IMG/VR virus record: IMGVR_UViG_3300023174_009216
Reading direction: 5' to 3' (one strand)
DNA length: 14,368 bases
Source: a virus
Lineage: Duplodnaviria; Heunggongvirae; Uroviricota; Caudoviricetes
The translations under genes were made by a program, and so were the position numbers. The notes under the pieces are model-generated. The model was not told the origin of the DNA. It searched no databases and saw only the letters and a list, made by a program, of their open reading frames with translations. Position 1 is the stretch's first letter. Every line of letters starts with the position of its first letter. Positions 6,561 through 13,514 of this stretch are shown here, piece by piece.

Positions 6561-6592
6561 GAGGTAAATTTATTTAATTTGCCTCACTTTTT
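6561..6592 (+). terminator. Probable intrinsic terminator of the endolysin gene
   Basis: Stem GAGGTAAATT/AATTTGCCTC (10 bp with one G-U), loop TATTT, followed by ACTTTTT. Confidence 0.55.
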
Positions 6593-7389
6593 CTTATGAG
6601 TATTCTATTTTTTACTCTTCTGTTATTTTTTATTCCATTTCCAATTGCTGAGCTAGTAACTCCCAAACAAGAAGCAGCATCTGATATACATTCCCATTCA
6701 TTTATAACATTACCTTCAATATCTAATTCAATAATAGGTTTAAGCTGATTCTTTGATATTCCTCTTCTAACACTTTTTATTCTTTGCCCCTTATATTCAT
6801 AAAACCAAACGTATCCGCCTCCTGTTTGGTTCTCTCCTCTTAAACATTTTCCTATTATCTTCTCTGAACTAAATTTTAATTTTTCTGTTGCATATCTTAT
6901 TGATTTATACTCATCTATAAAATCACCGCTTTCTGCATTATATTGATATATTTTCTTCTTATTAAACCCATCGTGTGTTCTTCCTTTCCATGGGTTAAAG
7001 TTTAGCATTCTTTGACGTGCTATTTCAGCACATTTATTGTATGTTCCATTCTCCGTTCTTTTTTTAACCCCCGAAAAAATGGATTCTTGTGACATTTCAA
7101 ATGTTTTTTCTCCGCCTGTAGTCATATTAGCCAATGGACCTGTACCTAAATCCATCCTTCCATACTTTGAAATAAGTTCTATTTCTTTATTACAGACATC
7201 CCCCCTAGAATCAGATTCAAACACTATTTTAAAATCGAATCCATACTTATTGTTAATATTTTTCCAGTGTGGATTTCTTTTGATTTTACTCTTTGCTCTA
7301 GAATATTGTTGCTTACCAATATTATTTCCTATGCCTACATAAAATACTTCTTCAGTTCCTTTCTTATAATGCTCATATACGTAATACAT
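6574..7389 (-). CDS. Free-standing homing endonuclease: GIY-YIG-like catalytic domain + two NUMOD1 helix-turn-helix repeats
   Basis: YYVYEH..FYVGIG..R..E..LISKYG..LANMTTGGE (GIY-YIG-like); KIYQYNAESGDFIDEYKSIRYA..GYVWFY and PIIELDIEGNVINEWECISDAA (NUMOD1); antisense to both neighbours. Confidence 0.85.
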   Translation of the reverse strand: MYYVYEHYKKGTEEVFYVGIGNNIGKQQYSRAKSKIKRNPHWKNINNKYGFDFKIVFESDSRGDVCNKEIELISKYGRMDLGTGPLANMTTGGEKTFEMSQESIFSGVKKRTENGTYNKCAEIARQRMLNFNPWKGRTHDGFNKKKIYQYNAESGDFIDEYKSIRYATEKLKFSSEKIIGKCLRGENQTGGGYVWFYEYKGQRIKSVRRGISKNQLKPIIELDIEGNVINEWECISDAASCLGVTSSAIGNGIKNNRRVKNRILIRKSEAN

Positions 7390-7878: not shown

Positions 7879-7908
7879 AAAAGCCTAACTAAAAATTAGG
7901 CTTTTTTT
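7879..7908 (+). terminator. Rho-independent terminator
   Basis: AAAAGCCTAA-CTAAAAA-TTAGGCTTTT stem-loop with T7 run, right after the stop at 7873. Confidence 0.85.
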
Positions 7909-7948: not shown

Positions 7949-7956
7949 AATATATA
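7949..7956 (+). promoter_or_regulatory. Candidate phage late promoter AATATATA
   Basis: Downstream of the terminator, 24 nt upstream of ATG 7981. Confidence 0.6.
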
Positions 7957-7980: not shown

Positions 7981-10275
7981 ATGAAAAGAGTCCAAAAAAC
8001 TAAAAAAATACTGGAAAATCAGGAGGAAGGACAAGAAATGCCACAAGGTGGAAGTGGCTATGTATATCAGGCAATGGGATTAGACCTAACCCAAATGGCA
8101 AGAGACGGAAAAATTGATCCAGTTGTTGGAAGAGATAATGAACTTGAACAAGTTATCTGGGTATTGAGTAGAAAGATGAAAAATAATCCAGTACTAATAG
8201 GTGAGCCTGGCGTTGGTAAAACAGCAGCTGTAGAAAAGCTAGCCCTTGTTATGATTGGCGATAATTGTCCAGGTTTTTTGGATGGTAAAAAACTTATATC
8301 GGTTGACCTTAATGCAGTATTAGCAGCAGGAGCTTTGGGACAGCTTATACAAGAAGTTGAGGAGCAGGGATTGGTCCTATTCATGGATGAAATACACACT
8401 CTAAAAAAACCAGCTGCCTATGATGCTCTTAAGCCTGCTTTGGCTAGAGGAAAACTAAGCCTGATAGGTGCAACAACTCTAAATGAATTTAGAGAGAGCA
8501 TAGAGAAGGACGGAGCAATGGAAAGAAGATTTCAAAAAATCTATGTGGATGAGCCTAGCTTTGCAGAGTGCTTGGAAATATTACAAGGTATCAAAAGTAA
8601 ATATGAGCAATTTCATAATGTAAGCTATACAGATGATTCAATAGTGTCTTTTATAAAACTCTCTCAGAGATACATTACAGATAGATTCTTACCTGATAAA
8701 GCTATAGATTTAATGGACGAGACTGGTGCTAAGATCCGTATGGCTAGAACTAAGAATCCTAGGGTAATGGAATTAGAAACTGAATTACTAGCTGCCAATA
8801 AAGCTGTTCATGATTTAGCAAAGGCACAAAAATTCGCAGAATCTTACGAGGCTCATGATAGAGTTAAGGAAATACAAGGCGAATTAAAGGCATTAAAAAC
8901 TGATGGTCCAAGAGAGGAACCTATAACAATAACAAAAGAACTATCTGAAGAGGTAGTTGCTAAAAAAACTAGAATACCTGTAGAGAGTATATCCAGAGAT
9001 CAAAAGCAATCTTTAAAAGGATTAGGATCAAGATTAAAAATGGCTGTTATAGGTCAGGATGAAGCGGTAGAAGCAGTTACTCGTATAATAAAAAGAACTA
9101 AGGCAGGTTTAAAAGATCCAAATAGACCAGAAGGTGTGTTTCTTTTCTTAGGACCAACTGGTGTTGGTAAAACACATTTGGTTAAAGAATTAGCTAGAGA
9201 GGTGTTTGGAGATCCTAGTAAAATGTTTAGATTAGATATGAGTGAATTCAGTGAGCCTCATACAGTTTCAAGACTATTTGGTTCGCCTCCAGGATATGTT
9301 GGATATGGTGAGGGAACACAGTTCACAGAGAAGATCAGAAGAAATCCACATTGCATTGTTCTTTTGGATGAACTTGAAAAAGCTCACCCTAAAGTTCTAC
9401 AATCTTGGCTTCAGGTTTTTGAAGATGGACATATGACAGACGGTGAAGGAAGAAAGGTTGATTTCAAAAACACCATTATTATTATGACTTCCAATATTGG
9501 TGCAAGAGCTGAAGAGGAAAAAAGAGCAACAATAGGATTCTCAACAGATGCCTCAAAAGAGGTTCAGAGAATAGATGCAGTAAAAGCAGATCTTAAGAAA
9601 AAATTACCACCCGAATTTATTAACAGAATAGATGAGATTATTATCTTTAAGGCATTAGAGAAAGACAATCTTTTCAAAATTATCGATGGTGAACTAAATA
9701 AGGTTGCAAACAAATTAAAAGAGAGAGAAATTGAATTGACTTGGGGTAGATCCATCAAGGAACTTATCCTAAATCAAGGATATGATAAAGAAATGGGAGC
9801 TAGACCTTTAAGACGTGCAATACAACAGTATATAGAAGATCCTATTGCAAATGCAATTATAGAGGATGAGGTTGGTGATAAAATTCACTTGGAATATGAT
9901 CTATCAAGCAACAAACTAGTAATTAACGGAAATCCCGTTAGTGAAAGCAAAAAACAAAAACTACAAAGGATTTTCAATCTATTTGAATCCGATGATAATA
10001 AAGATAAACCAAAAACTGGAAATCTTATGACCTTTGAAGCATTTGCAGCAGACCCTGCTACTAGACCAATGCCTAGTCCAAATGAGGACCCTGATGTGGA
10101 TCCTGATGTGGAACCATTACCTCCGGTAAAACCAGAAAGACCAGGAGAACCTATAAAAAGACCATCTGTGAATCCAGATCCTCTAGCAAAGAAAAAATCT
10201 TCAGAAGATGACGTGGTTGATAGACTTCTTAAAATACTTAGAGATGAAGACGATTCAATTGAAAATTACATTTAA
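7981..10275 (+). CDS. clpC: Class-1 Clp/Hsp100 AAA+ ATPase, ClpC/ClpE-type (no N-domain, D1 pore loops deleted, IGF loop present, C-terminal extension)
   Basis: Walker A GEPGVGKT and GPTGVGKT; Walker B FMDE and LLDE; ERRF; GYVG D2 pore loop; GARPLRR; short UVR-type M-domain ([14 protein letters not shown]); IGF at 9532-9540. Automated tools may label it ClpA/ClpB. Confidence 0.9.
10087..10113 (+). repeat. 12-bp tandem duplication in the ClpC tail (DPDV-DPDV-E)
   Basis: GACCCTGATGTG GATCCTGATGTG GAA. Confidence 0.8.
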
Positions 10276-10280
10276 CATTT

Positions 10281-11309
10281 ATGAGCGACAAAATAAAAAA
10301 ATTCGATTCTTTTTTTGAGGCAATAAGAGCAAGTGACATGTCTTCCATCCCAAGTGGATATCTTTCAAGTGTCACAGATAGAGCTAAAGAAAGAATGGGA
10401 ATAGCTGGACAGAGAGAAGGAGATCAGAGAGCAATAATGGCAGCAGCTGGTCCTTTAATGTCGGAGCTTGCCAGATCACAGGGATTATCAAGAGGACATG
10501 AAGAACCATTGGAGAAATTAGCTACCAAGGTAATTTATGATTTATATAAGCCCCTTATAGATTTCTATAACATCAAGCTTGATATAAAATTTGCTAGTGG
10601 CTCTGATATGAGAAGAATGATAGATCAGGGATACCAAAAAAATAAAAGAGACGAACCTGTAAATCCAAGTCAAACTCCTATTGTGAAAGCTAGAGGAGCA
10701 GATTTTTCCATGCTGATACACGAAGCAGTTAAAGGGATCTGGCTAGTGCTATCCCTGAAGGGAATTCCTAAGGATAAAGCTATGGCTAAAGATCTAGCTT
10801 CTAAGTTTGGACTAAGAGATGAACCAGATGATTGGAAATATGGGCCAGAGATTGCAGCTGATCTTAGAGATTTTGTGAACGAGAATCCAAAGGTAGATTC
10901 ATATGCTAATGTTAGAGAGGAGCTTTGGATGTTTATGGTTGATTCTAGAAAAGTTCCTGATGAAGAGTTTTTAGAACTTATGAAAGGTATATTGGCTAAG
11001 ACCCCAGAGGCTAGAAAAAAATTAGATGGCTATATAGATATTGTGATTAGGGGAATAAAAGAGAGGGACGAGTATCTAAGAAAGATGGAGGAGTATAAAA
11101 TACAGATGGCGGAATACGAGAAAAGAAAAGCAGAGTATCTAGAGCGTAAAAAAACAAAGGGACCAGCGATTACTCCTAGGGAGGTTAAACCTGAAAAGAC
11201 CATTGAATATTCTCAAATGACACAAAGAGAATTAAATGACGAACTTAATAAAGCTTTAGATAGAAGAGATTCCGAAAAGATTGCGGAGATTTCAAAGTAT
11301 TTACAATAA
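10281..11309 (+). CDS. Uncharacterised 342-aa protein: CTS-like N-terminus, LIHEAVKG motif, coiled coil, C-terminal UVR-like hairpin
   Basis: Starts 5 nt after the clpC stop; MSDKIKKFDSFFEA; ERDEYLRKMEEYK..ERKK coil; ELNDELNKALDRRDSEKIAEISKYLQ. Confidence 0.85.
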   Translation: MSDKIKKFDSFFEAIRASDMSSIPSGYLSSVTDRAKERMGIAGQREGDQRAIMAAAGPLMSELARSQGLSRGHEEPLEKLATKVIYDLYKPLIDFYNIKLDIKFASGSDMRRMIDQGYQKNKRDEPVNPSQTPIVKARGADFSMLIHEAVKGIWLVLSLKGIPKDKAMAKDLASKFGLRDEPDDWKYGPEIAADLRDFVNENPKVDSYANVREELWMFMVDSRKVPDEEFLELMKGILAKTPEARKKLDGYIDIVIRGIKERDEYLRKMEEYKIQMAEYEKRKAEYLERKKTKGPAITPREVKPEKTIEYSQMTQRELNDELNKALDRRDSEKIAEISKYLQ

Positions 11310-11319
11310 AAATTAAGAA

Positions 11320-11586
11320 ATGACACAGGAAGAAAAAAGAAAATTCATCTATTTAATAGTTCAGGGTGAAGCTAAAAATACCAAGCACATACTCCAAATG
11401 CAAGAAGTAAGAGAAGGCCTTATTGAAATTATGGGTCAGGAAAAAGGACAGCAACTTTTTAGATCTCTAGACACCCTTGCTAAATCTGCAGATAAACTAG
11501 ACTGGTTAGAAAATCCAGAATCAAGAGGAATGCAAATGCAACATGGGAATGCTTTTGGCGGAGCAGTAGATATAGAATGGGAGTAA
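11320..11586 (+). CDS. Hypothetical protein, 88 aa, third gene of the clpC operon
   Basis: ATG 10 nt after the upstream stop; helical, KRKFIYLIVQGEAKNTKH motif. Confidence 0.8.
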   Translation: MTQEEKRKFIYLIVQGEAKNTKHILQMQEVREGLIEIMGQEKGQQLFRSLDTLAKSADKLDWLENPESRGMQMQHGNAFGGAVDIEWE

Positions 11587-12100: not shown

Positions 12101-12697
12101 TTATTCAGCTATATAACCTGCTATTCTTTGAACAGATTCTATTACATCATGTCCTATCTCCTCTATATTTTCTATGGGGTGTTTAATCGTAGAGAACTGA
12201 AGGAATCCTAATAGATTCCCATTAAGTGATCTCATAGGAACTGTTGCCAGTTGTAATATTCCTTGCTCCTCTATTTTTTCTCTCATATAATCTAAAACTG
12301 GATTGTCTCCATTAACAAAGAAGTAATCCTTCTCGCTCATATGCTTCATTAGTGCAGGATGCTCTGTAACAAATATATTTTGGTTTAACTCCTTAACTCT
12401 TTCAATACCAGGTGAGATTGCCTCGTAGGTGAGAGAAAACTTTTTCATTGCTATTCCATTGAAAAACTTACCTCCATTATGAAATTGATAGATCGCTGCC
12501 CTGTCAAAATCATATTGTTTAATTAGGGCGTCAAGAAACTCCTGGATTTCCATCATTATGTTAACGTCGTCTGGAGTTATCTGCTCTTCCTTAGCTCTGT
12601 CTTTCTCTTTCTTCATTGTGTCTAATCTATGCTTAGACCAAACAGTAATCAGCGTAACCACTACTGTAGTGATAGATGTTATTAGGGTATTATCCAT
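12101..12697 (-). CDS. TM + GAF-like domain protein; T4 gpT-like holin candidate, 198 aa
   Basis: Start corrected to ATG 12697 (promoter motif 22 nt upstream); TM LITSITTVVVTLITVW; GAF-like FDRAAIYQFHNGG ... LATVPMRSLNGNLLGFLQFS; no kinase or cyclase output domain. Confidence 0.65.
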   Translation of the reverse strand: MDNTLITSITTVVVTLITVWSKHRLDTMKKEKDRAKEEQITPDDVNIMMEIQEFLDALIKQYDFDRAAIYQFHNGGKFFNGIAMKKFSLTYEAISPGIERVKELNQNIFVTEHPALMKHMSEKDYFFVNGDNPVLDYMREKIEEQGILQLATVPMRSLNGNLLGFLQFSTIKHPIENIEEIGHDVIESVQRIAGYIAE

Positions 12698-12717
12698 TAC
12701 TTTCTTTTCATTTTTTG

Positions 12718-12727
12718 TATATATATC
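12718..12727. promoter_or_regulatory. Bidirectional late-promoter candidate (TATATATATC)
   Basis: Minus strand GATATATA (12727-12720) faces ATG 12697; plus strand ATATATA (12719-12725) faces ATG 12744. Confidence 0.55.
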
Positions 12728-12743
12728 CATATCAAAATCAAAG

Positions 12744-13514
12744 ATGCACTCATATAATACATTCACAAATAAAAAGTTATCTCCCCTATTTGAAAATGAG
12801 AATGATTCACGTTCACAGATCCAAGAGGTAAATGATTTTATACGAAAAAGATTTATCGAGGCCGGTGGATTTGTGAGAAATAATGATGAAGGTGGTATTG
12901 ATTTTGGAAGATTAACCATACGAAAAGATTTTACAGGAAAATCATTAGAAGAGCTTCCATTTGATATACAATACGTGGAAAACTTTAGAGTGGTCTCAGG
13001 AAAGATTAGAAATCTAATAGGAGGACCAAAAAATTGTGAGGATCTAGATGTTTCTTATGGACAATTAACCTCACTAGAGGGATCACCACAAACAGTGAAA
13101 AATTTTAATGGGGAATTTAATATGATAAGATCTTTAAAGGGATGTCCAAAATATATCTCAGGAAACATTAGTCTCTCCCATAATATTTTATCCGATCTAA
13201 ATTATGGACCCTATATAATACTAGGAAGATCTAGTCTTAACTGGAACCCAAGATTAGAAAATACAGAGAATTCGGGAGTTAATATAGTTACATTATTTAA
13301 CAAAATGCATGAGGATATAAATAAAATCTATGCTAAGGGCGAGAGCAAAATTTCTGACATATTTAGAAAAATACAGGATGCAATAGAAAATAAAGAATAT
13401 GCACAATCCTTAATATTCAAGGATCCTTATTATTCTGTTTTTCTTAAAGAGTTTGAAGATGAGATATCAGAATTTGAATATCTTAAAACAATTAAAAATA
13501 TGGGCTTAATATAA
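12744..13514 (+). CDS. LRR-like repeat protein, 256 aa, CTS-like N-terminus
   Basis: Start corrected to ATG 12744 (MHSYNTF..LFENE); 20-22-aa repeats LEELPFD / IRNLIGGP / LTSLEGSP / IRSLKGCP / LSDLNYGP. Confidence 0.8.
   Translation: MHSYNTFTNKKLSPLFENENDSRSQIQEVNDFIRKRFIEAGGFVRNNDEGGIDFGRLTIRKDFTGKSLEELPFDIQYVENFRVVSGKIRNLIGGPKNCEDLDVSYGQLTSLEGSPQTVKNFNGEFNMIRSLKGCPKYISGNISLSHNILSDLNYGPYIILGRSSLNWNPRLENTENSGVNIVTLFNKMHEDINKIYAKGESKISDIFRKIQDAIENKEYAQSLIFKDPYYSVFLKEFEDEISEFEYLKTIKNMGLI

Follow-up and report, generated by a model that had tools for sequence, protein, structure and literature searches.

Mutant work indicates that pore loops in the first AAA+ ring (D1) let the Hsp100 proteins ClpA, ClpB, and ClpC take hold of substrate. 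In ClpA, degron capture falls to the D1 loops and unfolding to those of the second ring (D2), and ClpA with D2 loops only still degrades unfolded substrate delivered by ClpS; in B. subtilis MecA-ClpCP, exchange of the D1 tyrosine for alanine leaves no tested substrate degraded, making this residue essential for degradation (PMC8666677). Hsp104 requires both D1 loops (PMC5741831). A natural non-aromatic residue occurs at the D1 loop position of E. faecalis ClpE (Ile194), which has an N-domain of its own and ClpP as a partner; loop function is nevertheless retained, and the residue is needed for full activity (PMC13125188). In another AAA+ clade, the double-ring unfoldases Cdc48/p97 and Pex1/Pex6, neither of which has a ClpP-docking loop, translocate with D2 and not with D1 (PMC8666677; PMC10518020), although the D1 loops of Cdc48 still touch substrate and the D1 ring of Pex1/Pex6 is catalytically dead. 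In bacteriophage T4, the protease gp21 cleaves after L/I-X-E, residues 4 and 7 of the N-terminal capsid targeting sequence direct packaging, the head protein Alt is trimmed at both ends, and leaders pack and deliver proteins up to the size of beta-galactosidase (PMC9026906). In the literature searched, the coverage of which is incomplete, neither a natural Hsp100 with deleted D1 loops nor a virion Clp ATPase was found.

ClpC ancestry and the missing D1 pore loops

The window analyzed here, a 14,368-nt stretch of a Caudoviricetes virus (IMG/VR record IMGVR_UViG_3300023174_009216), contains an ORF at 7981-10275 (+), whose 764-aa product, P0001, derives from ClpC, as its sequence, its fold, and its place in trees show (Pfam, HMMER, structural model); all coordinates given below within this gene are on the plus strand. 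Pfam finds both AAA+ modules and no Clp_N domain, and the D1 Walker A motif lies already at residue 74, in agreement with an earlier sequence-only reading of this DNA that had called the N-domain absent. The best solved relatives are ClpC proteins (HMMER E 1e-167 to B. subtilis ClpC, PDB 3j3s/3j3t), the AlphaFold2 model matches S. aureus and B. subtilis ClpC with a TM score of ~0.8, and all top matches in sequence and fold are ClpC or ClpB, which sets the protein apart from the classic-clade double rings with N-domains (Cdc48/p97, Pex1/Pex6). The middle coiled coil (8746-8940; helices 241-289 of the model) is of the short ClpC type, with an aromatic tip at F285 that is Phe or Tyr in 25/25 clade members (alignment, model); it is shorter than that of ClpB, ClpA having none, and aligns as one ungapped stretch with ClpC, compared with two stretches against ClpB and against ClpA. 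A ClpB/Hsp104 identity was rejected on the grounds that the middle domain is not long, that a ClpP-docking loop is present, and that the protein falls outside the ClpB group in trees. Like ClpC of B. subtilis and S. aureus (PDB 3j3s, 7abr, 9rai), P0001 combines two AAA+ rings with a short middle coiled coil, a D2 GYVG loop, and a ClpP-docking loop, but it lacks the N-domain and the D1 pore loops and carries terminal phage motifs and a fused Pro-rich tail. It thus misses two features that define ClpC, has the rest of those testable from sequence, and is a ClpC variant and not a standard member of the family.

The region in question, 8305-8448, encodes residues D109-R156. When P0001 is aligned to B. 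subtilis ClpC with HMMER, nine residues, the tyrosine among them, are gone at D1 pore loop 1 and seven are gone at D1 pore loop 2, after Walker B, so that neither an aromatic pore loop 1 nor a pore loop 2 is left in D1; the lengths first counted from the letters (as far as Walker B, 31 residues versus 40; beyond it, 18 versus 25) are reproduced exactly. The first gap spans the end of strand 2 to Walker B, and eight of its nine missing residues fall inside the loop and one at the turn preceding the Walker B strand. The Walker A-Walker B and Walker B-LKP spacings are 50 and 10 in P0001 versus 58-60 and 17 in 77/77 scorable ClpB/ClpC-type genes from a metagenome scan, in which only ordinary ClpB/ClpC came back. 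In the AlphaFold2 model (pLDDT ~88-92 in the region), a helix at 110-115, a three-residue turn without an aromatic residue at 116-118 (8326-8334), and a helix at 119-129 stand in place of pore loop 1, and a four-residue link at 141-144 (8401-8412) follows Walker B in place of pore loop 2, both in accord with the alignment. Because this helix-turn-helix is tight and the link is short, the D1 loops are absent and not displaced, which disposes of the possibility, raised in the earlier reading, that they had merely shifted. The near invariance of the D1 tyrosine stated there for ClpA/B/C does not extend to the whole family, E. faecalis ClpE having Ile at this place (PMC13125188); in the control genes, loop 1 has Tyr or Phe in 75/77. 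Like ClpE, P0001 is non-aromatic, but its loop is physically missing.

The catalytic machinery of both rings is preserved. In the clade alignment, D1 Walker A (8200-8223), Walker B (8380-8391), sensor 1 (T166) together with the arginine fingers R182 and R183 (8467-8532), and the sensor 2 region (R235; 8680-8703) are invariant, and all D2 catalytic residues are invariant across 25 deleted-loop proteins. The D2 pore loop GYVG (9292-9303) has Tyr in 23/25 and Phe in 2/25, and with an aromatic residue in 25/25, D2 is the only ring of this clade that keeps an aromatic pore loop. P0001 accordingly retains the two AAA+ modules with Walker A/B, sensors, and arginine fingers and the (I/L/V)GF docking loop in D2 that are expected of ClpC. 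The latter, an IGF motif at 9532-9540, is kept in 24/25 proteins; P0021, which has the deleted loops, has lost it, and its close relative P0023 retains it. The intactness of Walker A/B, the arginine finger, and D2 GYVG claimed at the outset is borne out and extends to sensors 1 and 2. The D2-only translocation proposed with it stands in its structural part, in that only D2 keeps the aromatic loop and that catalytic and docking residues are kept; the threading itself is what these features make likely.

Loop loss among large phages

The same double in-frame deletion is shared by 25 distinct large-phage proteins; when the loop region served as query, 23 close proteins carrying it were retrieved, and deeper members came from viral contigs, the relatives as a whole being found on viral contigs and contigs of ~400 kb. 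In trees built without the loop, middle-domain, and terminal columns and with SH-aLRT as the only support, these 25 proteins form one fully supported branch (SH-aLRT 100), and the double deletion therefore defines a clade. The dN/dS between P0001 and its closest relative, P0002, is 0.054 in D1 and 0.055 in D2, and between P0001 and the next, P0003, it is 0.036 and 0.053, with dS near saturation; judged from these codon comparisons, purifying selection acts on D1 of the deleted clade as it does on D2 (dN/dS ~0.05). A deletion unique to this assembly and relaxed selection on D1, both considered in the earlier reading, were thus not found. An assembly error or decaying pseudogene, to which virtually no probability is given, is refuted by the identical P0001 protein on four contigs, the 25 diverged relatives, and the purifying selection. 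A single Clp ATPase is present in each of three records of clade members, which are incomplete (one of them 85% complete).

Within D1 of the deleted clade, conservation is lowest in the stubs left by the deletions (identity 0.48 versus 0.71-0.76), and the two spacings vary in this clade from 50 to 52 and from 8 to 12; where the loops are intact, their regions match the rest of D1 in conservation, approximately, or exceed it. Querying with a region outside the loops and termini yielded ~100 sister proteins; contigs of 440-640 kb carry some of these. No aromatic residue is present in loop 1 of 92 among the 99 scorable sisters, and seven keep Tyr or Phe; in the aromatic-less sisters, loop 1 is mostly near full length, with some one or three residues shorter, and loop 2 is one to three residues shorter in all sisters. 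Deleted, aromatic-less, and Tyr-keeping proteins together form one lineage (support 99), in which the free tree needs three changes of aromatic state and the AU test does not reject one loss only (p 0.16). Since in so many sisters the aromatic residue is gone from a loop that is hardly shortened or not at all, loss of the D1 grip looks primary in this lineage, with the P0001 clade as the extreme case. A linear series from tyrosine loss through a three-residue deletion to the full deletion had been considered from a first tree in which L005 was sister to the deletion clade (84), and was not upheld with more sequences, L005 then nesting in a separate branch.

Inteins also occur in phage ClpC genes. 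A tyrosine-less sister ClpC (L010:7902-10988) carries an intein with a homing endonuclease at the D2 Walker A site, and several sister matches of 1015-1080 aa likewise carry intein or endonuclease families. In G008 (464 kb, 98% complete), the phage ClpC is encoded in two genes ~48 kb apart on opposite strands (L117:1261 onward, +; L119, -), each half holding a piece of an intein at the D2 Walker A; this is apparently a split-intein ClpC, and its tyrosine loop is intact.

Terminal motifs, promoter element, and operon partners

Throughout the lineage, the N-domain is exchanged for a short basic leader, and a C-terminal extension directly after the last D2 strand is found in 24/24 deleted proteins and 93/99 sisters, compared with 1/32 other N-domain-less ClpCs. 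In P0001, the leader (7981-8016) ends in I-L-E, a possible prohead-protease site, and the extension (9937-9987) contains a possible cut site, V-S-E, followed by a leader-like copy of the motif; possible protease sites lie directly at both edges of the AAA core throughout the lineage. The leader motif, two aromatic residues three apart and then Glu, is found at 10% of the gene starts of these phages versus 1.7% internally (p 6e-10). In shape it recalls the capsid targeting sequence of T4. With a leader profile built from 51 phage genes other than Clp, at least one end scores in 20/24 deleted proteins, 84/89 aromatic-less sisters, and 7/7 Tyr-keeping sisters, compared with 0/32 other N-domain-less ClpCs. 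In P0001, only the C-terminal copy passes, and narrowly (score 6.4 versus a control 95th percentile of 5.2), the N-terminal leader being below threshold. This profile replaced strict terminal patterns that had been written after viewing the sequences and that recovered only some of the newly added sisters.

The terminal motifs are common to many other proteins of these T4-like phages. Motif and loop decay are linked only as one event, both lying on a single lineage in which seven motif-bearing sisters keep Tyr or Phe. Other N-domain-less phage ClpCs (~660 aa, e.g., L011 and L066) share with P0001 the large-phage origin and the docking loop, but they keep the full tyrosine loop and have no terminal motifs. 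The arrangement in the P0001 lineage recalls that of T4 internal proteins and Alt in its short basic/aromatic terminal motifs beside L/I-X-E-like sites, and the phage group has the corresponding head genes, the relative G002 encoding homologues of T4-type gp21 (prohead protease) and gp23 (major capsid protein); the likeness is one of arrangement, the best copy in P0001 is C-terminal, and packaging of P0001 is putative.

An ATATATA element at 7950-7956 (+), 25 nt before the start and common to the genes of relatives, is a putative late promoter. It lies 10-30 nt upstream of 9/10 lineage genes and in G002 also stands ahead of the genes for protease, tail tube, and portal, with the limit that the control is weak, other phages using another element; a sigma-70 scan gave nothing above chance. 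The terminal motifs and the ATATATA element, the latter shared with structural genes, suggest that P0001 is expressed late and packed into the head. A bidirectional terminator-like hairpin (7879-7905; two found, 0.2 expected) separates the small gene upstream from this putative promoter. Among the structural genes of G002, the prohead protease carries a fused scaffold-like region whose numerous tandem repeats contain L-A-E sites (L110:11464-13494), as expected for a self-digesting core protein, and in L112 two portal-like genes (15508-18743; 534 and 541 aa), alike at their N-termini, lie side by side, besides two tandem tail-tube-like genes (1837-2988), both pairs recognized by eye only.

The ATPase gene stands in a large-phage neighborhood with a ClpP-family protease, a GH19 endolysin, a NUMOD endonuclease, and many genes without assigned function. 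Its Pro-rich tail (10018-10272, +) is homologous to a stand-alone ~85-aa gene of other large phages (blastp E 1e-8 to 6e-4, eight ORFs). Two operon partners follow, namely orf342 (10281-11309, +), with a strong N-terminal leader motif and a C-terminal helical hairpin that by eye only is UVR-like and resembles the ClpC middle-domain motif, and orf88 (11320-11586, +), the excised middle segment of an ancestral ~490-aa protein (E 4e-21 to 2e-7, ten full-length homologues). Pfam gives no UVR match in orf342, and PHROGs and the ESM Atlas returned nothing useful for either partner. In other large phages, the ~85-aa Pro-rich gene is followed by a single ~490-aa gene; at the P0001 locus, the small gene has been fused as the ATPase tail and the ~490-aa gene has been split, its two ends joined as orf342 and its middle segment placed downstream as orf88. 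This unit of ATPase, ~345-aa gene, and ~90-aa gene, in that order, is kept in all tailed members examined while neighboring genes shuffle. The ~490-aa partner family is widespread (538 representatives) and occurs also in phages with intact ClpC. In the basal tail-less members, the loop deletion is present and the partner unit is not adjacent, and the deletion is therefore independent of the tail fusion.

The ClpP-family protease (767-1366, -), with Ser, His, and Asp motifs visible, lies 6.6 kb from the ATPase and is a possible partner. Such a gene is near the ATPase in 2/6 close contexts (the P0001 phage and L089); ClpP was not found in four records of deeper clade members and was not detected in G002 (85% complete). 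Elsewhere in the window, a putative NUMOD homing endonuclease (6574-7389, -) follows the endolysin gene and is absent there in the close relative L090. Two antiparallel ORFs (12101-12919, -; 12558-13514, +) overlap by ~360 nt; the gene calls of L081 start both later, and the overlap is probably spurious, a product of extending the ORFs upstream.

A probable D2-only unfoldase and its alternatives

The preferred reading, taken with its inferred steps and given slightly better than even chances, is that of a ClpC variant of a large T4-like phage in which polypeptide would be threaded by the D2 ring only. Quite probably, to judge from the retained residues, the protein forms an active hexamer in which D1 would bind and hydrolyze ATP for assembly and ring coupling and otherwise serve as a passive sleeve, and in which D2 would pull the chain and could hand it to ClpP of the host or phage. 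ATP turnover by D1 probably persists, given catalytic residues no less conserved than in D2; a passive sleeve does not fully account for conservation of this strictness. Having neither N-domain nor D1 loops, the enzyme would likely not capture ordinary degrons alone, by analogy with ClpA and ClpC mutants, and its substrates would be long unfolded or partner-presented chains that reach D2. P0001 would probably work like Cdc48/p97 or Pex1/Pex6, a functional likeness only; unlike them it has a ClpP-docking loop, and unlike that of Pex1/Pex6 its D1 keeps all catalytic residues. Chances are about even that, as the terminal motifs and promoter element suggest, the protein is made late, packed into the head through these motifs, trimmed by a gp21-type protease, and ejected, after which it may process co-ejected or host proteins early in infection. 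The D1 loops may have decayed where capture by D1 was unneeded, or harmful in an enzyme freed of N-domain control, the full deletion being the end state of this decay. The fullest version, an injected D2-only Hsp100 from a T4-like phage head that would act only on unfolded or partner-presented chains, for instance to refold or degrade proteins via host ClpP within the first minutes after infection, is tentative and rather less probable than the core.

The alternative first put forward for this locus was that the deletions were selected, widening D1 to an antechamber for a bulky folded domain or an adaptor-substrate complex; orf342 would be the obvious candidate adaptor. Both loops were indeed removed together and never regained in 25 proteins, the three-gene unit persists in the tailed members amid shuffled neighbors, and orf342 ends in its hairpin like the ClpC middle-domain motif (by eye). 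This selected antechamber is nevertheless unlikely and finds no support in the loop data, where the stubs drift in length and sequence, with the lowest conservation in D1, and most sisters lost only the aromatic residue, with the length of loop 1 mostly kept; variable stubs and the sister pattern fit grip loss better than selection for a defined wide chamber. Nor do the basal tail-less members, deleted without an adjacent partner, or the spread of the partner family to phages with intact ClpC speak for it.

Two further readings leave the loop loss as it is and change the place or the purpose of the enzyme. One, which is just as improbable as the antechamber, has P0001 unpackaged, as a late cytoplasmic chaperone or ClpP partner that would recognize or clear leader-bearing phage proteins in head assembly, its own motifs localizing it to the prohead core; it would accord with the putative late promoter, with a motif common to many phage proteins, and with the ATP at hand during assembly, and is opposed by possible protease sites at both AAA-core edges, as in processed T4 head proteins like Alt. 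The other, given a shade less credence still, has it as a decoy that, by binding host ClpP or joining ClpC rings of the host, would block or divert proteolysis there with little need to unfold anything itself, for which the docking loop kept in 24/25, the inactivity of ClpC D1 loop mutants in degradation, and the ClpP not found in the records of deeper members could be cited; a decoy would need neither invariant catalytic residues in both rings with an aromatic D2 loop nor a dN/dS of ~0.05 throughout.

If the injected-motor reading is true, P0001 would be without precedent among natural Hsp100 proteins in having no D1 pore loops, and would be an AAA+ unfoldase that virions deliver. Loops in the lineage range from intact through tyrosine-less and shortened to fully deleted, while the motor is otherwise conserved. 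Two questions thereby become testable, namely what ATP hydrolysis in D1 does when that ring cannot grip, and whether an Hsp100 can take up substrate with D2 alone. If the protein is packaged and injected, protein remodeling or the hijacking of ClpP would join what phage particles deliver.
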